Source: Alphaproteobacteria bacterium (GTDB taxonomy: Bacteria; Pseudomonadota; Alphaproteobacteria; Micavibrionales; UBA2020). From it: a stretch of DNA of 64,000 nt. Made by a program: the position numbers and the translations under genes. The notes under the pieces are model-generated. The model did not search any database. It saw nothing but the letters and a program-made list of their open reading frames with translations, and had not been told where the DNA came from. The stretch lies in assembly GCA_025934695.1 (NCBI GenBank), contig JAICWS010000001.1, positions 151,301 to 215,300 of the forward strand, read 5' to 3'. Shown here piece by piece: positions 6,377 to 45,029 of the stretch. Numbering within the stretch: the first letter of the stretch is position 1; every line of letters begins with the position of its first letter.

Positions 6377-6964
6377 ATGCGGCTTTTCGTCGGATTGGGT
6401 AACCCCGGACCGAAGCATGCAATGAACCGCCACAATATCGGATTTATGGCGCTGGATGTCATACACCAGCGCCATAAATTTTCTCCGTGGTCGCAGAAGT
6501 TCCAGGGGCTCGTTTCCGACGGGATTATCGAGAACGAGAAGATCATCCTGCTCAAGCCCCAGACCTTCATGAACGTCTCCGGCCAGTCGGTCTATCCCTG
6601 CTCGTTTTTCTACAAGCTCAAGCCGGAAGAGATCGTGGTGTTCCATGACGAGCTCGACCTCGCGCCCGGCAAGATCCGCGTGAAGAAGGGCGGGGGGAGC
6701 GCAGGGCACAACGGCCTGAAGTCGATCGAGCAGAACCTCGGCCCCGAATTCTGGCGGGTGCGCCTCGGCATCGGGCGCACCGTGCCGGAAGATATCTCGC
6801 GCTACGTGCTGGGAGATTTCGTGCAATCCGAGGGCAAATGGCTGTTTCCCCTGCTGGCGGGCGTCGGCGAATATGCGCCGCTGATCGTCAAGGGCGACAT
6901 GGACGCCTATATGAGCAAGGTCGCGGCCAACGTGCCAGCCGAGGAAAAGCCGACAATCAACTAG
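6377..6964 (+). CDS. pth: peptidyl-tRNA hydrolase
   Basis: MRLFVGLGNPG...TRHNIGF-like motif (NRHNIGF) and HNGLKS motif. Confidence 0.93.
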   Translation: MRLFVGLGNPGPKHAMNRHNIGFMALDVIHQRHKFSPWSQKFQGLVSDGIIENEKIILLKPQTFMNVSGQSVYPCSFFYKLKPEEIVVFHDELDLAPGKIRVKKGGGSAGHNGLKSIEQNLGPEFWRVRLGIGRTVPEDISRYVLGDFVQSEGKWLFPLLAGVGEYAPLIVKGDMDAYMSKVAANVPAEEKPTIN

Positions 6965-6976
6965 GGAAAAGAGAAA

Positions 6977-30268: not shown

Positions 30269-30299
30269 TGCTTATGCTCCGGCAGGTGATATGCCGCTA

Positions 30300-30329
30300 G
30301 TCATAGCGGACCGGGAAGCGCTATGTCAA
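30300..30329 (-). promoter_or_regulatory. sigma70-type promoter of the pip operon
   Basis: -35 TTGACA (rc 30324-30329), 18-nt spacer, -10 TATGAC (rc 30300-30305). Confidence 0.4.
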
Positions 30330-30369
30330 TTAGGGGCATGCGCAATAATATTTCCGGAGATCGGGTTGC

Positions 30370-31479
30370 TTACCCGCCCAAGGACGGCTTCTTCTTCGTC
30401 ACCGTTTTGTTCACCCCGGTCATGGATTTGATGAAATCGACTTCCTTCTGGATGTAGGGGGTGCCGTCCTGGCGCAGGATCTCGTGGAACCACAGGGGCG
30501 GCTCGCTCGCATAAGGCTTCTGCCAGGAATCCCAGGGCAGATGCGTCTGCGTGCGGCCCTGCACGAAACCCCAGTTGAAAAGGCCGATGTTGTGTTTCTT
30601 CGCGACCGGCATGATGTCTTCGAAAGTGCTCCCCGCGGGACGCGCCATATATTCGGTGCAGAGCAGGGGGCGGTCATGCTTCATGAGGTATTTCGCGCGG
30701 CGCTCGAAATCCGCAGCCGGCGCATAGTTGTGGAAAGAAATCAGGTCGGATTCCTCCATCTGGACTTTCTGCACGGCATTGACCTTGTCGAGATCATCCC
30801 ATTCGCCGATCCAGACGCCGCTGATGAGCGGCTGGTCCGGGTCTTGCGAGCGCGCCCATTTGAACACGTCGGAGAGCAGGGGCGCCACGAGGTCGATTTT
30901 GTTCTCCGGTTCGAGTTTGCCGTAGCTTGAAGCGTTGGTGTTGTCCGGTTCGTTCCAGACATCCCAGCCCAGCACGCGGCTGTCCTTGCCGAAAGCGCCG
31001 ACCACGCCTTCCACATATTCCTGCAGGCGCTTGCGCTGCGACGGATCCTGCAGTGCCGCGGCACCCGGCCCTTGCACCCAGCGGGAATTATGCACGCCAG
31101 GAACAGGCTCCTGCTGCGGGCCCAGTTTCGGGTTCGGATCCCATACGGAATCGAACAGCACGAGAAGTGGTTTGATGCCGTGCTTCTCCGCGACTGAAAG
31201 GAAAGTGTCGATGCGCGTCTTGAAGCCTTCCGGATCTTCTTCCCACAGGAGGTCATGCAGGAACACGCGCACGGTGTTCATCCCAAGATCGGCGGCCCAG
31301 CCAAGTTCCTTGTCGATCTGCTTGGGATTGAAAGTCGCCGCCTGCCACATTTCGAGCTGATTACTCGCGGTTGCGGGCGCATAGTTGCATCCCACGAGCC
31401 ACGGCTGTTCGGAATACCACTGGTTCGCGTGGGCTTGGGTCCAGCGTGGAGGATTAGCATCCTTCTCGGCGTTTTTCAT
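30370..31479 (-). CDS. clan GH-A (GH5-like) glycoside hydrolase
   Basis: WDVWNEPDN (acid/base NEP) and CTEY (candidate nucleophile Glu), spaced as in TIM-barrel GH5 enzymes. No signal peptide. Confidence 0.6.
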   Translation of the reverse strand: MKNAEKDANPPRWTQAHANQWYSEQPWLVGCNYAPATASNQLEMWQAATFNPKQIDKELGWAADLGMNTVRVFLHDLLWEEDPEGFKTRIDTFLSVAEKHGIKPLLVLFDSVWDPNPKLGPQQEPVPGVHNSRWVQGPGAAALQDPSQRKRLQEYVEGVVGAFGKDSRVLGWDVWNEPDNTNASSYGKLEPENKIDLVAPLLSDVFKWARSQDPDQPLISGVWIGEWDDLDKVNAVQKVQMEESDLISFHNYAPAADFERRAKYLMKHDRPLLCTEYMARPAGSTFEDIMPVAKKHNIGLFNWGFVQGRTQTHLPWDSWQKPYASEPPLWFHEILRQDGTPYIQKEVDFIKSMTGVNKTVTKKKPSLGG

Positions 31480-31501
31480 TTCTTGCTCCTTGGATGTCCC
31501 G

Positions 31502-31530
31502 AGCTTAGGAGAGGGTTTCGTTTATGTCAA
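31502..31530 (-). promoter_or_regulatory. sigma70-type promoter of the GH5-like gene
   Basis: -35 TTGACA (rc 31525-31530), 17-nt spacer, -10 TAAGCT (rc 31502-31507). Confidence 0.45.
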
Positions 31531-31598
31531 CGTCGCCCAAGCCTATTGACTCCGCAGATAAAACGTCCATTATGTCAATCATGCAGCGCAGCAAAAAC

Positions 31599-32084
31599 AT
31601 GAAACAACCGAAAGTTGAGTTGGGAATCAAAGGCGTTCTCGAACCGTTTTGCGAAACGGGAACGGAAGGCATCATCTGGTCGCTGCAGGATGAAAAGCAC
31701 ATTGCGCCGGACGGCTCCTATTCCTATGACGGACTCAACGGCCTCGAGGACGGCGACTTCCTGAAGGTCTTCAATGACGCGGCGCGCAAGAAAGTTATCT
31801 GGCAGGGCGAAATCAAATTGAAATATCCGCCCGCGACGCAGTTCAACCGCGGCGTGCAGGATGGCGTGAACGAGCGCACCTGGACAAAGATGTTCTTCGA
31901 CGAGAAGCCCGGCACGCTCTACAAAAAGAAGGACTGGGTGAAGATCAAGGCGGAGAAGAAAGCGCGGGCTGACGCAAGGGAGGCCGCGCGGCTGAAAAAG
32001 ATCGCCGACACGGAGCGTTCGTGCCTTGAAGGCGTGACGATCAAGCCGATGAAACAGATCCGGCTGAAGCCGGGCCAGCCTTAA
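31599..32084 (+). CDS. hypothetical protein
   Basis: ORF 31524-32084. The upstream part overlaps the divergent promoter, so an internal ATG (31572, 31581 or 31599) is more likely. None has a good SD. Lys-rich C-terminus. Confidence 0.4.
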   Translation: MKQPKVELGIKGVLEPFCETGTEGIIWSLQDEKHIAPDGSYSYDGLNGLEDGDFLKVFNDAARKKVIWQGEIKLKYPPATQFNRGVQDGVNERTWTKMFFDEKPGTLYKKKDWVKIKAEKKARADAREAARLKKIADTERSCLEGVTIKPMKQIRLKPGQP

Positions 32085-33412
32085 GCCGGCTTTACCTTCA
32101 TCTTCAGCAACCGTCCGCCGAACACGGCGCTTTCGTCGGCAGCGCCCCCTCTCTTCTTGAATTCTCCATAGGCCTGCCGCAGCGCTTCGTCGCTGACGGT
32201 GTCGAAGGACTCATGCGGTCCCATCGTTTCGGTTTTCGCCGACAGGTTTTCGGTGAGGGAGAGGCGCTCGCGCGTTTCGAAATTGAAAATTTCCGTGAGG
32301 CGGCGGTTGAGGACCGGAATGACGGTCGAATGGACAATGCTCGCCTTTCCCGACAAAAACCACGTGTCATCATCCCGTGATGCAGGAACAGGCGGCGGGG
32401 GCGAAGCAATCGCTGCCGGGACTGGCTTGACGACCGGTGCCACGGGTTCCGGAGCAATTTCCGGCGGCGGATTTTGCAGCAGTTTCACAACATCAGTCAG
32501 CGCATATTGCTGAGCGTAGGAAAGGGCCGTGCGTCCGCCTGAATCCTTCGCTTCCTTGTCGACGCCCTGCGCGAGCAGGAATGTCACCGTCTCCGTGAGC
32601 CCTTCAGCTGCCTTCGATTCCACCGCCGTGTGCAGCGCTGTCTTAAGCTCGGCGTTGAGTGCCCTGGCTTTAAAACCGTTCACGATCAGGGCCGTCATCA
32701 GCGAGACGTTTCCGTTCCGCGCCGCCGCATGGATCGGGAACTCATCGTCGAGAGGCTTGGCGCCCGCCTTGAGGAGCATCCGGACCATTTCCTCGTCGTT
32801 CAGGGCGCAGGCGCATTGCAGCGGACTCTGACGGAAGACCTTGGGTTCTGACTCCGACCAGCCCCAGAAGCTGGAGCGTCCATGGTCGCGCCGTGTTTCG
32901 ACGCGTGGCACGTTCGGGTCGGCGCCGGCGGCAAGGAGCATGGCCAGGCAGTCCCTGCTTTTGCTTTCCACGGCGGTGTAGAGGGCGGGTTTCCCGCCGG
33001 CGTTGAGGTCCGCGCCTTTGGTATCGAGGAAGATTTTCACGACCCCGGCGCGGTTCGCGGCGATGGCATAGAGCAGGGGCGACATCTTCCGATTATCCTG
33101 CGTGCCGATGTACGAGGCCGCCCCGTTTTCAAGCAGGGTGCGGACAGTCTCGGTGTGGCCGCCCGTCGCGGCGTAATGCAACGCCGTCCTGCTGCTATTG
33201 TCGCTGCACCAGGCCGGCGCCCCGGCTTTCAGCAATTGAGCGACGATGCCGGCATGCCCGTTTTTCGCGGCGAGGAGAAGGGCGTATTCTCCTGTCTTTT
33301 TGTCCTGCGCCCGCGACCAGGTGCGGTCGTCGGCCAGATAGCGGGCGACGGTCTTTTCGTCGCCGCTGGCCGCGGCGTGGAAAAACTTCTTTTGGCTCCA
33401 GAAAATGCCCAT
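32081..33412 (-). CDS. ankyrin-repeat protein (about 8 repeats) with Pro-rich linker and unknown C-terminal domain
   Basis: Multiple TALHYAATGGH..V..LL..GA-type repeats over the first 300 aa or so, then PPPEIAPEPVAPVVKPVP and a 100-aa tail. Confidence 0.85.
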   Translation of the reverse strand: MGIFWSQKKFFHAAASGDEKTVARYLADDRTWSRAQDKKTGEYALLLAAKNGHAGIVAQLLKAGAPAWCSDNSSRTALHYAATGGHTETVRTLLENGAASYIGTQDNRKMSPLLYAIAANRAGVVKIFLDTKGADLNAGGKPALYTAVESKSRDCLAMLLAAGADPNVPRVETRRDHGRSSFWGWSESEPKVFRQSPLQCACALNDEEMVRMLLKAGAKPLDDEFPIHAAARNGNVSLMTALIVNGFKARALNAELKTALHTAVESKAAEGLTETVTFLLAQGVDKEAKDSGGRTALSYAQQYALTDVVKLLQNPPPEIAPEPVAPVVKPVPAAIASPPPPVPASRDDDTWFLSGKASIVHSTVIPVLNRRLTEIFNFETRERLSLTENLSAKTETMGPHESFDTVSDEALRQAYGEFKKRGGAADESAVFGGRLLKMKVKPA

Positions 33413-33514
33413 GGTTTCGCCGGGTTACTCGCTTGAGTTATGGGCGAAAAGGATATGACATAATAATCGCATGGTCAATCCGCAGAATTGCAGTTAAATC
33501 GCGGTTTTATGCTA

Positions 33515-33543
33515 TTGACAGGGGTCTTTATGGGGGATATGAC
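33515..33543 (+). promoter_or_regulatory. sigma70-type promoter
   Basis: TTGACA (33515-33520), 17-nt spacer, TATGAC (33538-33543), 28 nt before ATG 33571. Confidence 0.45.
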
Positions 33544-33570
33544 AATTCATCAGCCCCGAAAGGATCAGTC

Positions 33571-34560
33571 ATGTCTGAAGAGAAAAAGCCGTTATCCGAA
33601 AGATTGCGCGCCGCCCGCGATGAATTCAACGATCTCGCAGCCAAGTCAAAGGCCGCGGCTGGCAAGCTCGATCTCCTGATCACGGAGGCTTTCGCGCAGG
33701 AAAACCGCACCGAGCTCAACAAAGTGCTGGATCAGTTCATTCCGACGGTCGACAAGTCGGCGCTCAAGGGCCACGACATCGTGTTCCTCATCAACAAATC
33801 GACTGACATGGGCGAAGGTTTCTTCAGCCCCATCGGCGCCGCCATCAGCACGGCGACCTCGCTCGCGGCCGCGACCGGCGGCCACGACGTGCGCGTGTCG
33901 GGCCTGCTGTGGGAAGCGGGTAACAGCACGAAAGCGCTGGCGCTCGGAGATTCTGACCGTCTCGAAAAAGCGCGCGAAAAATCCAAGACGACCAATAAGG
34001 AATTGCTGCCGGCCGTCCGCGAAATCATGCTCAACAATACGCCGGACAAACAGGACGGCCGCCAGAAGCACTTCATCGTCGTCTCGACGGGCAGCGTGAC
34101 CGACAACGTCGAGCATTCGGTCGAGATGATCAATACGGCGCTGCGCATGAATCCGCGCATCACCTTCGACTTCGTCACCGTCGGCACGGGCGAGGGGAAC
34201 ATGCAGGATCTCGTCTCGAAGATCGACGCTCCTGAAGCACGCAAGCCCTCGTATCTCCTCGTGTCCAAACACGAAGACCTCAACGGCGCCGTGATGAATA
34301 TCCTCACCGGCCGCTTCAAAGGCGAAGCGCCGAAACCGGTTGAAGCGCCGAAAGTGGTGGAAGCGCCCAAAGCGGAAGCCGCTGCAGTCGTTCCCGAGGC
34401 GCCGAAGCCTGCCGAACAGCAACCGAAAGCGGAAGCGCCGAAGACGGATATCGCGCAGGCTTCCAAAGCAGAAGCGCCTGCCATGGCAGAAGCCGCTCAG
34501 CCTCAGGCTGCTGCTGTGCCCGCCGCTGGCAAGAAGAAGTGGTATCGCTTCGGCCGCTGA
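33571..34560 (+). CDS. coiled-coil + vWA-like protein with degenerate MIDAS and Ala/Pro/Lys-rich tail
   Basis: Paralogous in layout to 56323-57264: VFLINKSTDM vs FFGDGSGSM, LLWEAG vs FLWGDS, KHFIVVSTGSVTD vs PHYIILSDGDVFD, ITFDFVTVG vs IDFIIFS. ATG 33571 follows AAAGGA. Confidence 0.55.
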   Translation: MSEEKKPLSERLRAARDEFNDLAAKSKAAAGKLDLLITEAFAQENRTELNKVLDQFIPTVDKSALKGHDIVFLINKSTDMGEGFFSPIGAAISTATSLAAATGGHDVRVSGLLWEAGNSTKALALGDSDRLEKAREKSKTTNKELLPAVREIMLNNTPDKQDGRQKHFIVVSTGSVTDNVEHSVEMINTALRMNPRITFDFVTVGTGEGNMQDLVSKIDAPEARKPSYLLVSKHEDLNGAVMNILTGRFKGEAPKPVEAPKVVEAPKAEAAAVVPEAPKPAEQQPKAEAPKTDIAQASKAEAPAMAEAAQPQAAAVPAAGKKKWYRFGR

Positions 34561-34617
34561 ATAGAGCGCTTGTTCAGCCGTTTATTCGTGAAAGCTCAAG
34601 TATTGAATCACCGGATC

Positions 34618-34649
34618 AGATTCCGAGTCGTAAAAACGGCTCGGAATCT
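34618..34649 (+). terminator. terminator-like hairpin after the vWA-like gene
   Basis: AGATTCCGAG...CTCGGAATCT forms a perfect 10-bp stem (extendable by 3 bp). Weak T-tail. Confidence 0.4.
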
Positions 34650-34694
34650 TACCGTTGTTAACTTACTGAAATTCCATTGAATTTTCCAAAAAGT

Positions 34695-34722
34695 TTGACG
34701 CCGCGGCTTTGTCTGCTACGCT
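34695..34722 (+). promoter_or_regulatory. sigma70-type promoter inside the AT-rich spacer
   Basis: TTGACG (34695-34700), 16-nt spacer, TACGCT (34717-34722). Confidence 0.4.
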
Positions 34723-34728
34723 GAGACA

Positions 34729-34843
34729 GCATCCAGGAAGGGCGCGGTATAACCAGTGATTTACATAACTTTTTCGCTGATGAATTCAGCAGGAAAAACA
34801 ACCGAAGGAGCCGGACGCTTGCAAACAAGTGCCGGTTTTTTTT
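34729..34843 (+). ncRNA. candidate small RNA or 5' leader/attenuator (about 115 nt)
   Basis: Bounded by the promoter at 34695-34722 and a strong intrinsic terminator at 34811-34843. No credible ORF inside. Confidence 0.35.
34811..34843 (+). terminator. rho-independent terminator
   Basis: CCGGaCGCTT-GCAAAC-AAGTGCCGG (9 bp with one bulge) followed by T8 (34836-34843). Confidence 0.7.
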
Positions 34844-34920
34844 GTCCTTCCAATTCCGATTCGTTTGATATGAATTTTTCACAGTCAGTTAGTAGGAATT
34901 ATTCGCAACTGGCGCAAAAT

Positions 34921-34974
34921 ATTTTGCATAACTTTGCTATCATTTTGCATAAACCGTATTCGTTTTGCCATAAC
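34921..34974 (+). promoter_or_regulatory. three phased direct repeats TTTTGC(C)ATAA
   Basis: ATTTTGCATAAC (34921), ATTTTGCATAAA (34942) and GTTTTGCCATAAC (34962). Spacing of 21 and 20 nt, i.e. two helical turns. Confidence 0.45.
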
Positions 34975-35060
34975 ACTATCACAAGATTTTTTTCAATCTC
35001 GACAATATCGAAAATGCTTGCGCCTCAAAAATATTTTCCGTATGACTTAGACATAATTCA

Positions 35061-35085
35061 TTTTCCGAAAAATATCTTCGGAAAA
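35061..35085. promoter_or_regulatory. palindrome TTTTCCGAA-N7-TTCGGAAAA (operator-like)
   Basis: Perfect 9-bp arms, about 70 nt upstream of ATG 35154. Confidence 0.4.
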
Positions 35086-35153
35086 GAAACGACCGAAAAA
35101 GACTACAACCAAAACCAAAAAACGAACTAGCACAGAAGAAGGAGACTACACAG

Positions 35154-36887
35154 ATGGCAGACACAGCAACAGCCCTGCAAAAAGCGAAAGAACTCGCCGA
35201 GCAGGCCGCGGTAGCGACGAAGAGGAAGACGGTTACCCAGACCACGACTTCTTCCGCGACCGAGACGAAAACGGACGACAAGTTCGCTGACATCAGCACG
35301 AACACGTTCTACAAGATCGTCTTCAACGAGAAGCTCGACGCCGAGCAGAAGAAAGCCGAAGTCGCGAAGGCCCTGACGTTCGATCCCGATCAGAAGGAAG
35401 AATGCCAGAACCGCCTGAAGGAATTCGTGACCTTCAAGGAATACCTGCAGAACGAGCGCAAGCGCCTCGCGCAGGAAATCATCAAGCTGACCGACACCGG
35501 CGCGTTCTCTGAACTCCAGGGCGTCATCGAGCAGCTGAACTCCGGCGTTCTCGAATTCGACAAGCGCATGACCCCGCTGACCGACATCATCGAAGCCGTC
35601 TACCAGCTTCGCTTGCAGGGCGGCGACACCGTCCTGGGCGTCTTCAAGGAGATCAAGGAAGACCAGGCGGCCGAGGAAGAGCGCAAGAAGAAAGTCGCTG
35701 AACATGAGAAGACCCTGCAGGACCTGCAGCGCGAAACCGATCAGGCCAAGGGCGACCTTGCCGTGCTGCAAAACAGCCGCAAGAACCGCAAGTGGCTGGG
35801 CCTCGGCGGCCTGAAGGACCAGGCGATCCGCGACATCCAGTCGAAAAACGACGAGCTGGCCAAGATCGGCACGACCGTCGAGTCGACCGCGAAAGAGCTG
35901 GAAGACCTGAAAGACCCGAACAAGGCGCGCGAAACGCAATACGCCCAGTTCGCGGAACAGAAGGCCAAGCTGCGCGAACTGCTCGACCTCACCTCGGAAG
36001 AGCACAAGACGCGCCAGAAGGACCTGGTCAACTCGGCCCAGACGTTCGTCAACAACTGCGACGAGCGCGTCGGCTCCGTGCTGAACCACCTCGACGCGAT
36101 GAGCGGCCAGATCGAAGGCCTCTCGAACGTCAACAACGGCATGCAGAGCATCTACGCGATCGTCTCCGAGGCTTCCAAGGACGCTTCTGACAACAACCAG
36201 AAAGTCCGCGAAGCCTATATGCCCCCGAAAGAGGGCGCGGAAAGCCCGATCGCCCAGATGCAGCGCGAGTCGAAAAAGCAGGCCGCTGAGGAATTCATCA
36301 CCTCGATGGACTCGTCCACCGTGGACACGATGAAGACCTACTCGGATCTCGCTTCGCAGGCCGTCCGCATCAAGCAGATGAAGGACGCCAACCGCGAACA
36401 GGTCTCGAAGACGCGCGAACTGCACTCGTCGGGTATCGCCGGCGTCGCTGACCGCCTCTCCACCGTTCTGCAGGCTGTTTCGGCCGCCGCGCTGAACGAA
36501 TCGGCGGAAGCTGCGAAGCAGTCGATCGGCACGATGACCGACAAGACCAACGCGGTCGCGATGAAAGAGTCCATCCGCACGGCAATGGGCATCAAGGACG
36601 CGGCGATCGGCCTGAACAAGGCTGTCGACGACCTGGCTGCTTACGGCGAAGTCCTGAAAACCTCCTCGCAGATCACCCGCGAGGGCGTGCAGGAGATCAA
36701 GCAAGGCCTCGGCGCCCTGCAGGAAAGCATCAAGAAGACGACTGCTGACCTCAAGGACGCATACGCGGTCAACGCTGAAGTCGCCGCTGGCACTACGGCG
36801 CCCGCTGCTTCGAACGACGACAAACCGGCCGCGGCTCCGACTTCCACGTCGAAGCCCAAGGACCCGTTCGCGCAGTTCAATAAGTAA
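35154..36887 (+). CDS. 577-aa coiled-coil protein of unknown function (possibly TelA-like)
   Basis: GAAGGAG SD. Helical, charged, heptad-like sequence throughout. No TM segment or signal peptide. Thr/Ser-rich N-terminus and Ala/Pro-rich C-terminus. Confidence 0.75.
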   Translation: MADTATALQKAKELAEQAAVATKRKTVTQTTTSSATETKTDDKFADISTNTFYKIVFNEKLDAEQKKAEVAKALTFDPDQKEECQNRLKEFVTFKEYLQNERKRLAQEIIKLTDTGAFSELQGVIEQLNSGVLEFDKRMTPLTDIIEAVYQLRLQGGDTVLGVFKEIKEDQAAEEERKKKVAEHEKTLQDLQRETDQAKGDLAVLQNSRKNRKWLGLGGLKDQAIRDIQSKNDELAKIGTTVESTAKELEDLKDPNKARETQYAQFAEQKAKLRELLDLTSEEHKTRQKDLVNSAQTFVNNCDERVGSVLNHLDAMSGQIEGLSNVNNGMQSIYAIVSEASKDASDNNQKVREAYMPPKEGAESPIAQMQRESKKQAAEEFITSMDSSTVDTMKTYSDLASQAVRIKQMKDANREQVSKTRELHSSGIAGVADRLSTVLQAVSAAALNESAEAAKQSIGTMTDKTNAVAMKESIRTAMGIKDAAIGLNKAVDDLAAYGEVLKTSSQITREGVQEIKQGLGALQESIKKTTADLKDAYAVNAEVAAGTTAPAASNDDKPAAAPTSTSKPKDPFAQFNK

Positions 36888-36901
36888 GCGACAAGTCATA
36901 T

Positions 36902-36932
36902 CCGGGCGCGGCCTTCAGAAAGCCGCGTCCGG
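36902..36932 (+). other. intercistronic GC-rich hairpin
   Basis: CCGGGCGCGGC-N9-GCCGCGTCCGG (11 bp, one G-U pair), with no T-run. Lies between gene 1 and gene 2 of the cluster. Confidence 0.4.
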
Positions 36933-37017
36933 AAGATGACCGGACCAGAACAGACAGCAAGCAAGGTTTATGCACTTCAATGCCTGCCTGACGGGCGAAG
37001 TGTCAAAAAAGAAACGG

Positions 37018-39408
37018 ATGACGACAATGGCAGATGAAACCCAACCGGCCCCTTCGGCCGCCAGCACGGGACCCAGCAGCGACTACCTGATCCGCGGTTC
37101 CGACTACCTCGCGAAGCATCCCGGCTTCAAAGCCGTCGGCCGCGAAGCGGAAATGAAGCAGGTCTCCAACATCCTCATGCGCAAGGACAGCAACAACGTG
37201 CTGCTGACCGGCCTCGCGGGCGTTGGCGTCTCGTCCATCAGCATGGGCCTCCAGGCCAGCAAGGATGATCTGAACACGCCGTCCGACATCGTCGGCAAGC
37301 GTTTCTACTGGCTCGACACCGACGCGCTCTTCGCATCGGGCGATCCCGCCAAGATCAACGAGGGCTTCCAGAAGGCGATCGCGACCCTGTCGCGCGCGCC
37401 GGACACCGTCCTCGTCATCGACGACTTCAAGGACTTCCTCGACGGCTGCCGCAACACCGGCTCCACGAACATCATCAACGCGCTGATGCGCGAAGTGCGC
37501 CAGAACAGCGCGTTCCAGGCCATCTTCGAAGTACGCGACACCGACCTGCCCGAGGCGCTGAAGGCGCACTCTGACATGAAAGACATCTTCACCCTCATGG
37601 AGATCAAGGAACCCGACAAGGCGGCCCTGGTACAGATGGTCGATGCGGGCTGCAAAGACCTCGAGGCGCACCACAAGATCAAGATCGACGACGACGCCAA
37701 GAAGACGGCGATCGATCTTACCAGCAAATACTCCATCCGCGAACTCGACGTCGCGCAGCCGAAGCGGGCTTTCATGCTCCTCGAAGGCGCGCTCACCGAG
37801 CTGCGCCACGATGCGCATACGCACCCGTTGGCGCGCGACGCGGTGGAAGAGCGCGTGAAGGACATCGACGCGGCTCTGGCCGGCAAGCCCTCGGACGAAC
37901 TGAAGGAAAAGTCGGCGGACGAGCTCCAGGCGATGAAACTGGAGGCCCAGATCGAGGCCGACAATATCACCAAGCAGTGGGAAGAGCGCCAGAAGCAGCT
38001 GCGCGCCCTGTACAAGGACCAGCGCAACGCGGAAGAAGAAATCCGCGGCCTCGACGTCAAGATCGAGGAGGAGCACCAGAAGAACGCCGCTGCCGCCAAG
38101 CAACACGAAAAAGACGAAGCGGAGAAGCAGGATTCGCAGGCGCCCACGACGACGCGCGCGCTGCAATTCAACCTCGCCAAGTCCGGCTTCAAGGGCACGG
38201 TCGAGCAGCAACTGGTGGACCAGCGCAAGGAATGGGACAGGCTGGCCCGCGACAACAAGGCGAAGTTCGACAAGCTGATCGACGAGATCAACGAAGGCGT
38301 CGTGCTGAAATCCGACCATATCCTGCAGGAATTCAGCCGCCTGTCGGGCGTGCCGGTGAGCCGCCTCGGCCAGGACGAGACGACCAAGCTGCTCGCCCTG
38401 GAAGACACGCTGAAGACTCGTGTATTCGGCCAGGACGAGCCGGTGGAGGCCGTCTCCAAATCGGTGCGCCGTGGCCGTACGGGCCTCAAGAAGGCGAACA
38501 AGCCCATTGGCTCGTTCCTCTTTCTCGGTCCTTCGGGCGTCGGCAAGACCGAACTCGCCAAGGCCCTGGCCGAAGCGCTGTTCGGCGACCAGAGCTCGCT
38601 TAAGGTGTACAACATGTCGGAATACCAGGAGAAGCACACGCTTTCCACGCTTATCGGCTCGCCCCCGGGCTATGAGGGTTATGCCGACGGCGGCGTCCTG
38701 ACCAACAACATGCGCCGTCAGCCCTATTGCGTGAACGTCTTCGACGAGATCGAAAAGGGCTGCCGCGAAGTGTTCGACATCTTCCTGCAGATCCTCGACG
38801 AGGGCATGCTGACGGATCGCCGGGGGTTGACCTCTTCCTTCGCGAACTCGATCAATATCATGACCTCGAACATCGGCGCCGAATTCTTCCTCGATCCGAA
38901 CCTGTCGTTCGACGAAGCGAAGAAGAAAGCGCTTGAGGTCCTGTGGAACCCCGACAAGGACAAGGGCGGCTCGGGCTATCGCCCCGAGTTCCTGAACCGC
39001 TTCACGGGCATCTTCTGCTTCAACCGCCTGGGCCAGCCGGAGATTATCAAAATCTGCGACAAGAGCTTCAAGGAGATCAACGGCTGGATCGCCGATAAGG
39101 GCATCCAGGTCAAGATGGACCAGGCCGACAAGGAAGCGATGTGCAAGGACCACTATATTCCCCGCGGCGGCGCGCGCTCGATCATGGGCTACATCGAAAA
39201 CAACATCACTTCCGATGTGTCCGACGAGATCCTGCGCCATCCCGACGAAGTGGGCACGCTAAAAGTCAGTTACGACGCGAACGCGCAACAGGCGAAAACC
39301 TCGTTCATCCCGGCCAGCCAGGAAAAGAAACCGGCCCCGGCGAACGAGAATGCGCCCGGCGGTTCGGCCACCAAGGCCAGCGGCGCAGTGTTCAACGCAT
39401 CCAAGTGA
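37018..39408 (+). CDS. ClpB/Hsp100-like AAA+ protein without N-domain; degenerate NBD1, intact NBD2
   Basis: NBD1 Walker A is GLAGVGVS (ClpB GEPGVGKT) and Walker B is LVIDD (IDE). Coiled-coil M-domain-like insert. NBD2 has GPSGVGKT, VFDEIEK, pore loop GSPPGYEGY and sensor GGARS. Start may be 37018 or 37027. Confidence 0.85.
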   Translation: MTTMADETQPAPSAASTGPSSDYLIRGSDYLAKHPGFKAVGREAEMKQVSNILMRKDSNNVLLTGLAGVGVSSISMGLQASKDDLNTPSDIVGKRFYWLDTDALFASGDPAKINEGFQKAIATLSRAPDTVLVIDDFKDFLDGCRNTGSTNIINALMREVRQNSAFQAIFEVRDTDLPEALKAHSDMKDIFTLMEIKEPDKAALVQMVDAGCKDLEAHHKIKIDDDAKKTAIDLTSKYSIRELDVAQPKRAFMLLEGALTELRHDAHTHPLARDAVEERVKDIDAALAGKPSDELKEKSADELQAMKLEAQIEADNITKQWEERQKQLRALYKDQRNAEEEIRGLDVKIEEEHQKNAAAAKQHEKDEAEKQDSQAPTTTRALQFNLAKSGFKGTVEQQLVDQRKEWDRLARDNKAKFDKLIDEINEGVVLKSDHILQEFSRLSGVPVSRLGQDETTKLLALEDTLKTRVFGQDEPVEAVSKSVRRGRTGLKKANKPIGSFLFLGPSGVGKTELAKALAEALFGDQSSLKVYNMSEYQEKHTLSTLIGSPPGYEGYADGGVLTNNMRRQPYCVNVFDEIEKGCREVFDIFLQILDEGMLTDRRGLTSSFANSINIMTSNIGAEFFLDPNLSFDEAKKKALEVLWNPDKDKGGSGYRPEFLNRFTGIFCFNRLGQPEIIKICDKSFKEINGWIADKGIQVKMDQADKEAMCKDHYIPRGGARSIMGYIENNITSDVSDEILRHPDEVGTLKVSYDANAQQAKTSFIPASQEKKPAPANENAPGGSATKASGAVFNASK

Positions 39409-39430
39409 TGCCTTAGGAGGAAACTGAAAA

Positions 39431-40330
39431 ATGGCAGACGGCAGCAGCGGCAAACCTAAGTCGATCGACGAACTGCTCGAAGACGCGCGCAAGATCAGGG
39501 CGCAGGTCGGGCAGACGACTCAGGATGCCAAAAAACTGAACATCAAAGGCACCGTGGCCGGCGATGCCTTGAAAAAGGTCGAAGTGCTCAATGACGCCGC
39601 GCAGGAAGCGCACGGCGTAAAGGCGCTCGTCACCGAAACCGGGCGCAGCGTCGGGCATTTCATCGTCCACAGCTGGCCGGTGCGCGCCTACGCCTGGCTT
39701 TTCAAGAAGCTCTGCTACAAGAAGGACAAGGCGACGGGCGAGAAGAAAGTGAGCCCGCGCCGCGCCAAGGCCATGATCCTGTCGACGGCCTTCCTGGCGT
39801 CCGCCGCGATTCCCGGCATGATCGGCATGCCCGCCCGCCATACCATCGGCGCGGTGGCAGAGCCGGTCTTCGACGGCGCGCGGATGGCGACCATGATGCA
39901 CAAGAACGAGATCATGTACCTCAACGACGAACACGTCGTCGACCATGCGCACAACGTCTGGGTCGTCAAGGGCACCACCAAGCCCGGCGGGGACGTGAAC
40001 GACGCCGTTCTTCTGAACGTCAAGCCGAGCCTGATGAACGACCTCTGGAGCTGGAAGAACAAGGGCAACCCGTTCTTCATTCCCGACCAAGTCGTGTCTC
40101 CCGTCGCGCCCGGCAACCAAACCCGATACATGGTGACCTATTACGGCCATCGCTGGAGGCTCTTCACCTGGATGCAGGCCTATCCTGAACTGCTCGATGT
40201 GAAGGCGCTGCCCGCCGACTTCAACGCGAACGCGACGAAGGCGCCAGCCGCCAACGCAAACGCGCCGCAGGCGCAGCACACGACACCTGCGCCGGTTCAG
40301 GCGTCGGCGCCCAAGGCGCCCGGCCAATAA
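39431..40330 (+). CDS. single-pass membrane protein with DUF1523-like C-terminal region
   Basis: AGGAGG SD. One hydrophobic helix (ILSTAFLASAAIPGMIGM). YYGHRWRLFTWMQAYPELL resembles the YGWR...FPN segment of DUF1523 (from memory). Ala/Pro/Asn/Gln-rich tail. Confidence 0.6.
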   Translation: MADGSSGKPKSIDELLEDARKIRAQVGQTTQDAKKLNIKGTVAGDALKKVEVLNDAAQEAHGVKALVTETGRSVGHFIVHSWPVRAYAWLFKKLCYKKDKATGEKKVSPRRAKAMILSTAFLASAAIPGMIGMPARHTIGAVAEPVFDGARMATMMHKNEIMYLNDEHVVDHAHNVWVVKGTTKPGGDVNDAVLLNVKPSLMNDLWSWKNKGNPFFIPDQVVSPVAPGNQTRYMVTYYGHRWRLFTWMQAYPELLDVKALPADFNANATKAPAANANAPQAQHTTPAPVQASAPKAPGQ

Positions 40331-40353
40331 CGAATACTACCTTGCTATCTGGG

Positions 40354-40390
40354 GCTGCCCCCGCCTTAACCGGCGGGGGCAGCTTTTTCT
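40354..40390. terminator. strong rho-independent terminator between convergent genes
   Basis: GCTGCCCCCGCC-TTAACC-GGCGGGGGCAGC followed by TTTTTCT. Confidence 0.8.
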
Positions 40391-40393
40391 GGA

Positions 40394-41341
40394 CTATTGT
40401 TTGAGCGCCGTCAAATGATGCCGCACGCAGCTTTCGAGCGCCTTGATCTCGTAGCCGCCCTCGAGCGCCGAGACGACGCGGCCCTGGCACAGTTCGTCCG
40501 CGGCTTTCACAATCATGCCGGTCAGGGTTTCGTAGTCCTTTGACTCCAGCTTCAGGTTCGTCAGCGGGTCGGATTTGTGCATGTCGAAACCGGCGGAGAT
40601 GAGGACGATTTCCGGCTTGAATTCATGCAAAGCGGGGATGACCTGTTGGCGGTAAAGCGCTTCGACCGTATCGAAACCGCTATGCGCCGGAATCGGCACC
40701 GTCAGCACGTTGGGCGACAGGCGGCCTTCGGCGTCATTGTGGTTGTACTTGCAGTCTTGCTGGCAGGAAGAGATGAACAGCACCTTGCCGCCGCCGCTCT
40801 TTTCGACGATGTCCTGCGTGCCGTTGCCGTGGTGCCGGTCGAAATCGATGACCGCGACGCGCTGCGCGCCCGCATCAAGGGCATGCAGGGCGCCGATCGC
40901 GACGTTATTGAACAGGCAAAAGCCTTCGCCGCGTTCCGGCCCGGCATGGTGTCCCGGCGGGCGCACGGCACAGAAGGCGCGGTTGCATTTGCCCGAGAGC
41001 GTATCGTCGACGGCCTGGCAGACAGCGCCTGCGGCATCCTTCGCTGCCGTATAAGAGCCGCGCGAAACGCGCGTGTACCATTGCACCTGTTCGCTCGTGA
41101 TATTCGCGATGGTCGCGCGGATGAAGCCTTTTTCGCTGATGGATTTGACATGATCAATGTAGGAAACGGTATGCGCCCGCTGCAGCATCGCGTCGGTCGC
41201 AGGCTCAGGGCGGATGATGGGCAGGGCCATCTCGTTGAATATCCCAGTCAGCGCCTTCAGGCGGCCGGGCTTTTCTGCGAAACCGGGGAAGCCTTTATGA
41301 TCGAGGCAGGACGGATGATAATAGACATTGAGCTTGTTCAT
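40394..41341 (-). CDS. histone-deacetylase-family (acetoin utilisation/acetylpolyamine amidohydrolase-like) protein
   Basis: RPPGHHA, DFDRHHGNGTQ, GGYE motifs. ATG at 41341 (the track uses GTG 41350). Confidence 0.85.
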   Translation of the reverse strand: MNKLNVYYHPSCLDHKGFPGFAEKPGRLKALTGIFNEMALPIIRPEPATDAMLQRAHTVSYIDHVKSISEKGFIRATIANITSEQVQWYTRVSRGSYTAAKDAAGAVCQAVDDTLSGKCNRAFCAVRPPGHHAGPERGEGFCLFNNVAIGALHALDAGAQRVAVIDFDRHHGNGTQDIVEKSGGGKVLFISSCQQDCKYNHNDAEGRLSPNVLTVPIPAHSGFDTVEALYRQQVIPALHEFKPEIVLISAGFDMHKSDPLTNLKLESKDYETLTGMIVKAADELCQGRVVSALEGGYEIKALESCVRHHLTALKQ

Positions 41342-41407
41342 GACGTTCACGATGCTGGTGATGAAAGGTGTGAAAGTCGATGAATCGATCTTTCCGGCTG
41401 GTGCGGG

Positions 41408-41436
41408 AAACTAGCAGCCGGGCATCGTTATGTCAA
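41408..41436 (-). promoter_or_regulatory. sigma70-type promoter of the deacetylase gene
   Basis: -35 TTGACA (rc 41431-41436), 17-nt spacer, -10 TAGTTT (rc 41408-41413). Abuts the gltX stop. Confidence 0.35.
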
Positions 41437-42852
41437 TCAGGCGACATCGCTCAGGCGGCCCAGCGTCTCGTCTTTGCCAAGAATTTCAGCGACATGGACG
41501 ATGGATGGGCTGTTCGTCGTGCCGGTGATCGCGGCGCGAAGCGGCATCAGCACCTTGCCGATCTTGAGGTCCTTCTTCGCCGACAGTTCTTTCAGCGCAT
41601 GCTCGATCTTGTCGTGCTTGAATTCGTGCAGGCCGGTCAGCGTCTGCTTCACTTCGCCCAGCAGCGCGCGCGCCGACGGGTCCAGCATCTGCGCCGCCTT
41701 TTCGTCGAGCGGCAGCGGGCGCTTGCGCAGGTAGAAGAGGCTGGCCTTGGCGAAGTCGACAAGCGTCGGCGCGTCCTTGGCGCGTTCCTTGAGGTCGTGC
41801 AACCCGTGCTTGAGACGCTGCAGACCGACTTCATCCGGCTTTTCGCCGAGTTCTTTTTCGAGGAACGGCATCAGCAGACCGATCAGGTGATCGTCCGAGC
41901 ATTGCTTGATGTAATGCGCGTTGACATGCGCGAGCTTGGCGAAGTCCATGCGCGAGGGCGAGCGCCCGATGTCGGAAAGCTCGAAAATCCGGATCGCATC
42001 TTCGGTGGAGATAATGTCCGTATCGCCATGGCCCCAGCCAAGGCGCAGCAGATAGTTGCGCATCGCCTCGGGCAAGTAGCCCATGTCGCGATAGGCCTCA
42101 ACGCCAAGCGCGCCGTGGCGTTTCGACAGTTTTGCGCCGTCGGGCCCGTGGATGAGGGGGATATGCGAGAACGAGGGCACATCCCAGCCCATCGCATCGT
42201 AAATCATGCGCTGGCGGAAGGCATTCGTCAGATGGTCGTCGCCGCGGATGATATGCGTGATGCCCATGTCATGGTCGTCGACGACCACGGACAGCATATA
42301 GGTCGGCGTGCCGTCGCTGCGCAGCATGACCATGTCGTCGAGCTGCGTATAGGGCACTTTCACTTCGCCCTGCACGAGATCCTGGATCACCATTTCGCTG
42401 TTCTGCACCGACGGCGCCTTGATGCGCACGGCGGGCTTTTGCCCGGCGGGCGGGTTTTTGGCGTCCTGTTCGGCGCGTTGGCGCAGCAAGGGGCTAAGGT
42501 TCGCGCCCTGCGGCAGGTTCTTGCGCATCTCCTCGAGTTCTGCGGGCGCGACATAGCACAGGTAGGCTTGGCCGCGCTTGACCAGCTCATGCGCGACTTC
42601 GGCATGGCGGTTCATGCGGGCGAACTGCATGATCGGCTCGCCATCCCAGTCAATGCCCAGCCATTTCAGGCCGTTAAAGATCGCCTGCACCGCAGCCTCG
42701 GTCGAACGGGCGCGGTCGGTATCCTCGATGCGCAACAGGAACGTGCCGCCCACATGGCGGGAATAGAGCCAGTTGAACAGGGCCGTGCGCGCGGAGCCGA
42801 TATGCAGGTATCCGGTGGGCGAGGGGGCGAAGCGGGTAATGACTTTGGACAT
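41437..42852 (-). CDS. gltX: glutamate--tRNA ligase (long, about 471-aa paralogue)
   Basis: RFAPSPTGYLHIGSART and KLSKRHG. ATG at 42852 (MSKVITRF...) preferred over track start 42876. Confidence 0.93.
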   Translation of the reverse strand: MSKVITRFAPSPTGYLHIGSARTALFNWLYSRHVGGTFLLRIEDTDRARSTEAAVQAIFNGLKWLGIDWDGEPIMQFARMNRHAEVAHELVKRGQAYLCYVAPAELEEMRKNLPQGANLSPLLRQRAEQDAKNPPAGQKPAVRIKAPSVQNSEMVIQDLVQGEVKVPYTQLDDMVMLRSDGTPTYMLSVVVDDHDMGITHIIRGDDHLTNAFRQRMIYDAMGWDVPSFSHIPLIHGPDGAKLSKRHGALGVEAYRDMGYLPEAMRNYLLRLGWGHGDTDIISTEDAIRIFELSDIGRSPSRMDFAKLAHVNAHYIKQCSDDHLIGLLMPFLEKELGEKPDEVGLQRLKHGLHDLKERAKDAPTLVDFAKASLFYLRKRPLPLDEKAAQMLDPSARALLGEVKQTLTGLHEFKHDKIEHALKELSAKKDLKIGKVLMPLRAAITGTTNSPSIVHVAEILGKDETLGRLSDVA

Positions 42853-42935
42853 GCCGGTGAAGCCTTCAGTTTGCAATTTTTGCGCATGTATCGTAAGGGT
42901 TTTATCGGTTTAACTCAATATGATATGTCGCAGCT

Positions 42936-45029
42936 TTGAACAAGTGGCTTACATTATTCGCAAATCAGCTCCTGGCCCAGCGCGACAGGTGGGTATTGTG
43001 GCTGCCCGTGCCTTTGGGATGCGGCATCCTCCTTTATTTCAATCTCAAATCCGAACCGTCGCCATATGTCGGCGGGACGGCCCTTGCGGTGGTGGGATTG
43101 GTCGCGGCGGCCTTTCACAGGAACCGCGTTTTTCTTTACGGCTGGCTAGTGGTATTCCTCGTCGTGCTCGGCTTCACGGCGGCACAAGTGCGGACTTGGT
43201 ATGTCCAGGCGCCGATGCTCTACAAAAAGACCTATCCGCTGGTGCTCGAGGGAACCGTCGCCTACACCGACCCGCTGCCGAGATCCTATCGCGTTGTGCT
43301 CAAGGATATCACCGTCACCGAAGGCGACATCCGTCAGACTGAGCTGCCCAAACTAGTGCGCGTCAAGCTCAAGCCCAATGACACGGCGGAGCCGGTCGGT
43401 GGCGACGTCGTTTCCGTCCGGGCGGTGTTGCAGCCAATCTCCGCGCCCGTGCTGCCCGGCGCCTTCGACTTCCAGCGATTTGCGTTTTTCGAGCAGCTGG
43501 GGGCCACCGGGTATGCCCTCGGCGATCTCACCATCATCAAGCCGCATGTGGAAGGTTTTGTTTTCGACCGCCTGCGCCGCTATATCCGCGAACATATCGA
43601 GGCTTCTGTGCCCGACAAGGAGGATGCAGCGCTCATCACCGCCTTCATGGTCGGTGACAGCAATGGGATTTCGCAGCAGACCTGGGATATCTGCCGCAAA
43701 TCCGGCATCGCGCACCTGATCGCCATTTCCGGCTCGCACTTCGTCATGATCGGCGGCTGGCCTTTCTTCCTCATCCGCGCGCTGCTGGCGGCGATTCCGT
43801 TTATCGCGCTGCGCTGGCCGATCAAGAAGATCGCCGCCGCTTTCGCCATCGCGACCTCGGTGTTCTACATGATGCTCATCGGCTCGCCCATTCCGGCACA
43901 GCGCGCGGTGTTGTCGGTCTCGGCGGTGATGGTGGCGATCATGCTGGACCGCGACCCGTTCACGTTGCGGCTTGCGTCCTTTTCCGCGCTCGCCATTTTA
44001 TTGTTCGAGCCGGAAAGCCTTTTAGGCGCAAGTTTCGAACTGTCCTACGCCGCCGTCATCTGCCTGATCGCCTTTTATGAAATGACGCGCGGCTGGTGGC
44101 AGGAACGCTTCCGTGACGAGAACCTGGTGCGGCGATACGGTTCTTATCTATTAGCCTGCGTCGTGACGACGGGCGTCGCGAGCCTCGCTACGGGACCTTT
44201 CGCGCTTTACCATTTCGCACGCATGCCGCTGCTGGCGGGGCTCGTCGCCAATATGATCGCGGTGCCGCTGTCATCCATCCTGACCTTTCCGGTCGGCTTG
44301 TTCGCCTGCCTGATGATGCCTTTCGGACTCGAAAAATGGCCGCTGTGGGTGACGCAGAAGAGCCTCGACCTTATCCTCGCCGTGGCCAAGGTGACGGCCG
44401 ATTGGGAATATGGCTCATGGCGCGGCGGCGCGGTGCCCGCCTGGTTCCTCGCGCCCATTGCCATCGGCGGTCTTTGGATATGCTTCTGGCGCGGCAGGAT
44501 GCGGGCCTTCGGCGTCATTCCGCTCGCGATAGCGGCGGGGTTGCTGTGCTTCGTGCAGAAACCGGACGTGCTGGCGGCGGATTTCGGTGATCTTTTCGCG
44601 GTGCGCAGCGCGGACGGGAAACTGCTGTTCTCCTCCGACCGGCGCGGCAAATTCGTGCGTAACGAATGGCTGCAACTCGAAGGCGCCAGCGACGATTACG
44701 ACGTCTGGCCGGGCGAAGGCCAAGCGGGAGGGTTAATGACCTGCGACGCCACTTCCTGCGAATACAAGACGAAGGGGCAGAGCATTTCGTTTGTCCTCGC
44801 GCCGGAAGGACTGACGGCGGCCTGCACGAGATCCGTGCTTGTCTTCAGCCATCTCGACCTCGGTGGGGAGACCTGCGCCGCGCCGCTGAAAGACAAGTGG
44901 AAGCTTTACCATTCCGGCGCGGAGGCCGTGTACATGAAGCCCGAAGGGCTGCGCGTCGTCAGCGTGACGGATGAGCGTGGGAGCAGGCCCTGGACGTTGC
45001 CGAAAAGATCCTGGCAGAACAATGACTGA
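42936..45029 (+). CDS. comEC: ComEC/Rec2-family membrane protein
   Basis: 697 aa, polytopic. SGIAHLIAISGSHF competence-domain motif. TTG start uncertain. Confidence 0.8.
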   Translation: MNKWLTLFANQLLAQRDRWVLWLPVPLGCGILLYFNLKSEPSPYVGGTALAVVGLVAAAFHRNRVFLYGWLVVFLVVLGFTAAQVRTWYVQAPMLYKKTYPLVLEGTVAYTDPLPRSYRVVLKDITVTEGDIRQTELPKLVRVKLKPNDTAEPVGGDVVSVRAVLQPISAPVLPGAFDFQRFAFFEQLGATGYALGDLTIIKPHVEGFVFDRLRRYIREHIEASVPDKEDAALITAFMVGDSNGISQQTWDICRKSGIAHLIAISGSHFVMIGGWPFFLIRALLAAIPFIALRWPIKKIAAAFAIATSVFYMMLIGSPIPAQRAVLSVSAVMVAIMLDRDPFTLRLASFSALAILLFEPESLLGASFELSYAAVICLIAFYEMTRGWWQERFRDENLVRRYGSYLLACVVTTGVASLATGPFALYHFARMPLLAGLVANMIAVPLSSILTFPVGLFACLMMPFGLEKWPLWVTQKSLDLILAVAKVTADWEYGSWRGGAVPAWFLAPIAIGGLWICFWRGRMRAFGVIPLAIAAGLLCFVQKPDVLAADFGDLFAVRSADGKLLFSSDRRGKFVRNEWLQLEGASDDYDVWPGEGQAGGLMTCDATSCEYKTKGQSISFVLAPEGLTAACTRSVLVFSHLDLGGETCAAPLKDKWKLYHSGAEAVYMKPEGLRVVSVTDERGSRPWTLPKRSWQNND

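Follow-up and report, generated by a model that had tools for sequence, protein, structure and literature searches.

What is made by three consecutive genes of which the middle one resembles ClpB and the other two resemble nothing that has been described? The genes lie on the plus strand of a 64,000-nucleotide (nt) stretch of alphaproteobacterial DNA (contig JAICWS010000001.1; the whole stretch is called the window below), and we refer to them in order as g1 (35154-36887, 577 amino acids (aa)), g2 (37027-39408, 793 aa, with an alternative start at ATG 37018 in an open reading frame (ORF) that opens at 36970) and g3 (39431-40330, 299 aa). An earlier note on this DNA had suggested that the three products are the scaffold or substrate, the motor and the membrane anchor of a dedicated remodelling module. 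Here we describe how the trio is built, the state of its motifs, its strict co-occurrence and its carriage by phages, and propose how its products might work together.

Conservation and linkage of the three genes

We scanned one genome for each of 185,579 species, confirmed 96 g1 loci and retrieved 80 of them. g2 follows g1 on the same strand in every retrieved locus with enough downstream DNA, and in 76 loci the next ORF is of g3 size, with order and strand constant. A g3 profile matched 72 of these 76, and three of the other four (L033, L065 and L068; L-numbers label the compared loci that carry the trio) share the g3 architecture. Defined as g1, followed by a ClpB-like gene whose first ATPase domain (D1) lacks the Walker A lysine, followed by a g3-type bitopic membrane gene, the module is present in the window, in 76 loci and in 12 phage genomes or contigs. 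The first three genomes compared (Taklimakanibacter, a 7.1-Mb JGI contig and Dongia) already have this order, with g1 followed by a ClpB-like gene of ~716 aa and then by a gene of 243-251 aa, in loci whose flanks differ from one another. Clustering of all neighbouring ORFs gave no fourth conserved gene, and the flanks vary. The earlier note had staked its proposal on linkage in other genomes; the homologues proved to be linked in practically all genomes examined, and the trio is a real, self-contained conserved module.

The median gap is 61 nt between g1 and g2 and 12.5 nt between g2 and g3, the latter two genes overlapping by 4 nt in 15 of 68 loci. Pairwise distances of the g1, g2 and g3 proteins are correlated with one another over 77 loci (Pearson 0.79-0.86, species phylogeny being uncontrolled). 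Both g1 and g2 are of fixed length, with mean pairwise identities of 0.45 and 0.52, respectively. Among the best 150 g1 relatives listed, the complete sequences measure ~506-614 aa and no fusion was seen. A database search with g1 gave 438 relatives, which go down to 42% identity (42-50% in other orders) and are all unnamed or 'hypothetical', and among 1.84 billion representatives g1 clusters number 376 at E<=1e-3 and 214 at E<=1e-30.

The alphaproteobacterial carriers are Micavibrio-like bacteria, Dongia, Taklimakanibacter, Parvibaculaceae, Maritalea, Mameliella and Sagittula; those in the Gammaproteobacteria are Halopseudomonas, Pokkaliibacter, Motilimonas, a Vibrio, Alcanivorax, Woeseiaceae, Wenzhouxiangellaceae and Pseudohongiella. 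Outside these two classes the trio occurs in Bradymonadales and in metagenome-assembled genomes (MAGs) assigned to 'Deltaproteobacteria' and Verrucomicrobiota. Two contigs of one MAG (JAQSDV01; loci L009 and L010) each carry an identical-looking trio, which reflects either a duplication or an assembly or binning duplicate.

The ClpB-like protein g2

Residues 36-737 of g2 are colinear with ClpB 180-835 in one stretch (NF008118, E 1.2e-90). Pfam recognises AAA_2, ClpB_D2-small and, weakly, AAA_lid_9 in D1; Clp_N is absent by the same search, and across the family only 19-58 residues, mostly 19-37, lie ahead of D1. g2 therefore has the two AAA+ modules and the middle coiled coil in ClpB order, but it stays well below the cut-off of the ClpB equivalog (381 bits against a cut-off of 1232). 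The same holds for a second ClpB equivalog (305 against 1417; the two tested were NCBIfam TIGR03346 and NF008118), for ClpA (355 against 993) and for TssH (343 against 885). The best relatives in the PDB are ClpC and ClpB, which are matched mainly through the second AAA+ module (D2). By architecture g2 is thus a member of the Hsp100 superfamily, and by score it falls outside ClpB, ClpA and ClpV.

The D1 module (37135-37896, plus strand, g2 residues ~37-290) is degenerate. In an alignment of the window's g2 to ClpC, Walker A reads GLAGVGVSS instead of GEPGVGKTA, Walker B reads IDD instead of IDE, the pore loop reads D-PAKINEGF instead of KYRGEFE and the Arg finger reads KD instead of RR; the loss of the pore-loop Tyr and of the Arg finger was established for this one protein. 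The loss of the Walker A Lys, by comparison, extends over the family, with Cys or Val at this position in all 75 aligned members. The usual D1 P-loop of the family is GVGC[ST]ALC, the equivalent of which in the window lies at 37210-37236. As a side observation, this motif places a CxxxC pair exactly at the start of the Walker A Lys-Thr helix; the window's clade has Val/Ser in its place.

The middle coiled-coil region (37897-38316, plus strand, g2 residues ~291-430) corresponds to the ClpB region from TIGR03346 position 406 and is 121-174 aa long among the bacterial members. It is followed by D2 and D2-small (38317-39246, plus strand, g2 residues ~431-740), which have the sequence of a canonical motor. 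Across the 75 members D2 keeps GPSGVGKT, FDEIEK, the pore loop GYEGY, TSN with its sensor-1 Asn, RPEFLNR and GAR. Of the two nucleotide-binding domains, then, D2 has an intact Walker A (GxxGxGKT) and D1 does not. A ClpP-docking [ILMV]G[FL] loop is absent from the window's g2, and only one of the 75 members has one.

Because the D1 motifs look dead, D2 is canonical and the ClpP loop is missing, we read g2 as a stand-alone unfoldase-type ring that is driven by D2 and carries a conserved pseudo-ATPase D1, which probably does not hydrolyse ATP. g2 had previously been described as a two-ring Hsp100 without Clp_N. The AAA_2 and ClpB_D2-small matches and the missing Clp_N agree with that description, but the implied pair of normal rings does not hold, as the degeneration of D1 had gone unnoticed.

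The membrane protein g3

g3 is basic (isoelectric point (pI) 9.6) and is modelled by AlphaFold2 (AF2) with a helical N-terminal part of ~110 residues and a C-terminal beta domain of ~140 residues, at a predicted local distance difference test (pLDDT) score of 77. The hydrophobicity scan agrees with the single transmembrane (TM) helix noted previously: the only window of TM-level hydrophobicity is the segment MILSTAFLASAAIPGMIGMPA (39773-39835, plus strand, g3 residues 115-135; Kyte-Doolittle (KD) value 1.69). It is preceded by the Lys/Arg-rich flank KKDKATGEKKVSPRRAKA, which makes an N-in topology likely. g3 is therefore most likely an N-in bitopic inner-membrane protein, predicted to expose a small beta domain to the periplasm.

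Four Cys follow the TM segment in all nine non-Micavibrio members checked (in GC-SLPC, C-V-GYG and CRP), and all four are gone from the g3 proteins of the window's clade. In gp488, the g3 homologue of the jumbo phage Atu_ph07 (see below), two of the four are kept and the first pair is gone. Such pairwise loss is more readily explained by two separate disulfides in the periplasm than by a single metal site.

The resemblance of g3 to DUF1523 (PF07509) that had been suspected was not recovered, as none of 34 g3 members matched this family at E<=1. No other family was matched consistently by the 34 members either; Pfam, NCBIfam, PADLOC and PHROGs were blank, and a profile search of the PDB gave noise. 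The 199 database relatives of g3 are all 'hypothetical'. Foldseek returned weak OB-fold-like matches (PltB and SSB, E>=0.067), and against BFVD it returned gp488 of Atu_ph07, as the sole significant match, together with unnamed proteins. We also considered a MIM1-type motif for the N-terminal D-x-LL-x-RA-x-x-L helix of g3 and rejected it, since its register is wrong for such a motif and g2 lacks an MIT domain.

The helical protein g1

g1 is acidic (pI 5.4) and predicted to be cytoplasmic. Its AF2 model, built from 31 sequences, has a mean pLDDT of 70 and eight helices of up to ~90 residues, three of them of 73-94 residues, and its most hydrophobic 19-residue stretch reaches a KD value of 1.12, which is below TM level. 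The model and the scan thus bear out the earlier description of a 577-aa helical protein with neither a TM segment nor a signal peptide. Residues 1-40 are modelled as a disordered, mildly basic tail. Between the helices at 157-207 and 222-253 the model places a short bridge, and this bridge is a conserved aromatic, Gly-rich loop, RKWLGLGGLK (35784-35813, plus strand, residues 211-220; consensus FFGLGGVK), in which G216 is invariant and G218 and G219 are nearly so. Residues 465-540 are well conserved yet modelled at low confidence, a combination that is typical of helices whose folding depends on a partner. A disordered Ala/Pro-rich linker (pLDDT <50 at residues 536-569) then leads to the C-terminal motif DPFAQFNK (36861-36884, plus strand; consensus PSPFKLG, columns 601-658 of the g1 alignment A1), which might serve as a docking or engagement tag.

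Searches with g1 gave no match in Pfam, NCBIfam, PADLOC or PHROGs, and a search of the PDB with the g1 profile gave noise. The weak TelA/YaaN (PF05816) likeness that had been proposed was not supported: the window's g1 has no TelA match at E<=10, at which it matches only DUF4093 and NPV_P10, and for 31 g1 members the list of the 25 most-matched families does not include TelA. PspA_IM30 was not matched by the window's g1 either. In Foldseek no PDB structure matched the g1 model at E<=0.001; the list consists of generic coiled coils (E>=0.034), with ClyA and SmhB below them at ranks 25-31 (E>0.1, template modelling (TM) score <=0.14). With no match in Pfam, NCBIfam, PADLOC or PDB sequences, g1 and g3 stand outside any characterised family, an outcome on which the earlier note's proposal had also been made to depend, and on these searches, which a deeper kinship with TelA, DUF1523 or other folds may escape, the trio is an undescribed unit.

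Separately, we noticed that residues 43-57 of g1 (35280-35330 of the window; KFADISTNTFYKIVF, consensus RFAxIxANxFYKIMF) resemble the N-terminal membrane-binding helix of PspA (SRFADIVNANINALL). The RFADI-like heptad that the two share is a lead and not a finding, and may be due to chance.

Phage copies of the trio

The trio is also carried by phages. In the Agrobacterium jumbo phage Atu_ph07 (490 kb) g1 is represented by gp493 (36% identity, hmmsearch E 4e-151), g2 by gp492 (E 4e-145, with the P-loop GVGC as in the family) and g3 by gp488 (E 7e-65; Foldseek E 3.4e-14). The phage locus differs in having three small unrelated genes between gp492 and gp488 and a middle domain of ~60 aa in gp492; gp493 ends in ...NAFGF. 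The complete trio, in constant order, was found in a further 11 viral contigs of IMG/VR (24-608 kb, GC content 0.37-0.56). In a g2 tree built by neighbour joining, the phage copies branch deeply, are diverse and group with the clade of Dongia, Taklimakanibacter and Parvibaculaceae. No g1 homologue was found on any of 72,556 plasmids. The presence of the module in at least 12 jumbo-phage genomes or large viral contigs offers a testable link between a host-type chaperone machine and the biology of phage infection.

The authors of the Atu_ph07 genome took gp492 to be a ClpB chaperone and to aid survival of the host during infection (PMC6102473). This is the sole mention that we found in the literature, and it names gp492 'ClpB' and overlooks the partner genes. 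The text of its supplement lists neither 488 nor 493, the virion proteome table possibly lying outside that text.

In one 518-kb IMG/VR contig (L095) a PHROGs scan places the trio amid NAD-salvage genes, NAMPT and NMNAT. The genes that flank the trio there, at 4193-7772 and 13627-14670 of the contig, are a NAMPT gene, an NMNAT/NUDIX-type gene and a second NMNAT gene.

Layout and signals of the locus

In the window the three same-strand ORFs are separated by 130 nt (36887 to 37018) and 22 nt (39408 to 39431) and share the start ATGGCAGA, in the case of g2 from ATG 37027, exactly as had been described. Strong Shine-Dalgarno sites precede g1 (AAGGAG) and g3 (AGGAGG). The module ends in an intrinsic terminator (40351-40390, plus strand), whose 15-bp G+C stem (40351-40385) is followed by TTTTTC; its folding energy of -34 kcal/mol (z = -4.8) was equalled by none of 200 shuffles, in agreement with the closing hairpin reported before.

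The presumed promoter or regulatory region is the 593-bp spacer 5' of g1 (34561-35153), which has a GC content of 0.36-0.48 compared to ~0.60 in the flanks. The AT-richness attributed to this region is real, but 'repeat-laden' is only partly apt, as the repeats are short two-copy ones of 10-15 nt. A candidate regulator-binding site among them is ATTTTGCATAA, present twice with 21-nt spacing at 34921-34952 (plus strand, repeat family D7). This pair, also read as TTTGCATAA with the same spacing, recurs in the closest relative, L006. Blocks of the spacer are conserved with L006, L016 and L017. A consensus scan for sigma-70 found no plus-strand site in the spacer, and Rfam gave no match within 30000-44000 of the window.

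Within the spacer we also observed a possible small transcription unit or leader at 34695-34843 (plus strand). Its elements are a -35-like hexamer (TTGACG), an unpaired core, TGATTTACATAA, that is conserved, and a hairpin with a T-run as terminator. L006, L016 and L017 share this unit, the base changes in the stem of its terminator being compensatory, and Rfam has no match for it. About 25 nt 5' of the TTGACG hexamer lies the conserved motif TGTTAACTTACTGAAA (34656-34671, plus strand), which recurs with <=4 mismatches in L006, L008, L011, L016 and L017 and may be a regulator site.

The 146-nt spacer between g1 and g2 folds at -48 kcal/mol (z = -3.9) and contains a G+C-rich hairpin with a 12-bp stem and no T-run (36895-36940, plus strand), which may set the ratio of g1 to g2 expression. 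This spacer is long in the Micavibrio-like clade (110-150 nt) compared to 5-70 nt in other lineages. Long ORFs also run antisense to g1 (35127-36899, minus strand, 590 aa) and g2 (37003-39240, minus strand, 745 aa) and recur as 'shadow' clusters in relatives. As such ORFs overlap g1 and g2, ORF length is no proof of coding in G+C-rich DNA; plus-strand coding is settled because homologues of g1 and of the whole trio exist in other genomes, and the antisense ORFs are artefacts of G+C-rich coding DNA and not genes.

Genomic context

The window appears to come from a housekeeping part of the chromosome of an alphaproteobacterium related to Micavibrio, its nearest relatives being an 'Alphaproteobacteria bacterium' MAG (88%) and a Micavibrio sp. 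(~72%). It also holds Lon (23965-26367), ComEC, an HDAC-like gene and two glutamyl-tRNA synthetase (GltX) paralogues within 25 kb of each other, one at 17351-18688 and the other at 41437-42876 (both minus strand), the latter assigned from its own sequence and from the context given in the earlier note. Just upstream of the trio lie a weak VWA-domain protein with an Ala/Pro/Lys-rich tail (33433-34560, plus strand) and a 443-aa ankyrin-repeat protein (32081-33412, minus strand). An ORF at the VWA position is common to 13 Micavibrio-like loci only. The repeats of the ankyrin protein resemble those of Dot/Icm Ank effectors, with scores far below the cut-offs of the latter, and the corresponding upstream positions in L088, a Micavibrio sp. 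MAG, are taken by an ankyrin gene and a gene of 274 aa.

A proposed mechanism for the trio

The physical interactions of the three proteins, their direction of action and their physiological role are what we infer here. We favour, if tentatively, the reading that the trio makes one dedicated machine, in which a D2-driven unfoldase works at the inner membrane by way of g3 and acts on or through g1. g2 would form a ring of ClpB/Hsp104 type in which only the D2 tier burns ATP and grips or threads polypeptide. The pseudo-ATPase D1 would most likely be a platform for assembly and docking, the partners docking on D1 and on the middle domain. The helical cytoplasmic part of g3, of ~110 residues, could hold the ring to the inner membrane, on its cytoplasmic side, or regulate the ring there, and its disulfide-bonded periplasmic beta domain could report on the envelope or act in it. 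g1 would be the dedicated client or adaptor, engaged through its disordered tail or its terminal PF motif, and g2 would remodel or disassemble g1 assemblies, as ClpV does with its sheath or Pex1/Pex6 at its membrane anchor. The likely outcome would be upkeep or remodelling of the inner membrane or envelope, a trait that could be useful both to scattered Gram-negatives and to jumbo phages with long infection cycles. The roles of scaffold or substrate, motor and anchor suggested in the earlier note appear reasonable in this light.

A number of results weigh against this reading. The family is rare (96 hits in 185,579 species genomes and 376 clusters in 1.84 billion) and patchy, and the neighbour-joining tree of g2 is not congruent with taxonomy; such a distribution, which resembles that left by horizontal gene transfer, would also fit a conflict system. 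Sites for sigma-32 (gamma and alpha types), sigma-E, sigma-54 and EcfG are not enriched over shuffles in 74 upstream regions, and therefore nothing links the module to heat or envelope stress. Foldseek against the PDB detected no relation of g1 to any membrane-remodelling fold, and hhalign of alignment A1 against Escherichia coli PspA detected none to PspA (probability 0.3%, E 0.2, over 7 columns). Finally, the topology of g3 was inferred from its sequence alone.

Alternative explanations

The most probable alternative, unlikely though we consider it, is that the trio serves in the conflict between phage and host. Its role would be anti-phage defence or abortive infection in bacteria and counter-defence or superinfection exclusion in jumbo phages, with g3 as an envelope sensor or effector and g2 as an ATP-dependent switch. 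The rare, patchy spread and the discordant g2 tree fit such a module, and its presence on 12 phage genomes or contigs, in one case (L095) beside NAMPT and NMNAT, points the same way, as does a match of the D2 region of g2 to the PADLOC candidates PDC-M37B and DolB. However, in PADLOC-DB 2.0 these matches cover only the generic D2 ATPase; g1 and g3 have none, and the three components together match no single system. Seven Pfam-annotated contexts contain no restriction, toxin-antitoxin, integrase or transposase genes, the neighbours being metabolic or housekeeping, and the plasmids searched carry no copy. The good conservation and fixed length of g1 and g2 and the lack of a nuclease, protease or other obvious effector domain also argue against a conflict function.

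It seems less probable again that g2 is a specialised ClpB paralogue for general disaggregation under stress, with g1 and g3 as co-chaperone-like accessories and no dedicated client. This is the function that was assumed for gp492 of Atu_ph07 (PMC6102473), and the ClpB-colinear order, the middle coiled coil and the fully canonical D2 of g2 are consistent with it. It does not account for the large shortfall against the ClpB cut-off, for the absence of an N-domain or for a D1 in which Walker A Lys, pore-loop Tyr and Arg finger have all been lost. An obligate linkage to two partners, one of them membrane-bound, is moreover foreign to general disaggregases, and no sigma-32-type promoters are enriched upstream.

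An export or membrane-insertion device, in which g2 unfolds or primes a ClyA-like, membrane-active g1 and g3 is its receptor or immunity factor, is very improbable: the long helical bundle of g1 with its conserved aromatic, Gly-rich tip loop and the appearance of ClyA and SmhB among the weak Foldseek matches would suit it, but those matches are not significant and rank under generic coiled coils, g1 has neither a hydrophobic hairpin nor a signal peptide, and no secretion-system genes are linked to the trio.

We return to the trio as one dedicated, membrane-tethered unfoldase machine. If this is true, g2 would represent a new branch of Hsp100 in which the first ring is a conserved pseudo-ATPase and two unannotated partners are obligate, and the trio gives a context to g1 and g3, two families now labelled only 'hypothetical protein'. 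A more specific and rather improbable version of this machine is one that maintains the membrane. Here the anchored pseudo-ATPase-ring unfoldase would cyclically assemble and strip g1, a helical membrane-binding protein of a new kind, and so repair or reshape the inner membrane, and the periplasmic domain of g3 would sense the state of the envelope. For jumbo phages the benefit of acquiring the module would be a host membrane that stays energised through a long infection, or a weakening of abortive-infection effectors that target the membrane.

Comparison with known systems

The libraries and the open-access literature searched describe no trio of this kind, in keeping with the earlier note's statement that no described system has this composition, and they contain no bacterial Hsp100 with a pseudo-ATPase first ring at a membrane anchor. 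Among characterised systems, a close likeness is to ClpB/Hsp104. As in these proteins, the domains of g2 run from D1 through the middle coiled coil to D2 and D2-small, D2 has the same motifs (Walker A and B, the GYxGY pore loop, the sensor and the Arg finger) and a ClpP loop is lacking. It differs from them in having no N-domain and no D1 Lys, and in being always encoded with two specific partners.

Like the trio, the Psp system (PspA, PspB/C and PspF) brings together an AAA+ protein, small bitopic proteins and a peripheral protein that is helical; its concern is the integrity of the inner membrane, and the short RFAxIxAN segment of g1 is like the N-terminal helix of PspA. However, PspF is a sigma-54 activator and not an unfoldase, and hhalign gives g1 and PspA a probability of only 0.3%.

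Pex1/Pex6, NSF and p97, the latter two being type II AAA+ proteins, likewise have two tiers, of which one is catalytically degenerate while the work falls to the other. Such machines are known in eukaryotes (Pex1/Pex6 and NSF), and Pex1/Pex6 is held at the membrane by the small single-pass protein Pex15/Pex26, which has a helical cytosolic domain. These machines belong to the classical AAA clade and not to Hsp100, and their partners are unrelated in sequence to g1 and g3, so that the comparison is one of analogy only.

ClpV (TssH) is an Hsp100-type ring dedicated to one structural client, the VipA/VipB sheath of the type VI secretion system. Both ClpV rings are active, and VipB is recognised by the N-domain. 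g2 differs in lacking the N-domain and in its score, which is far below the TssH cut-off; type VI secretion families are absent from the annotated contexts, and the loci share no neighbours beyond the trio. As a ring with a dedicated client, however, ClpV provides a model for how g2 might reset assemblies of g1.

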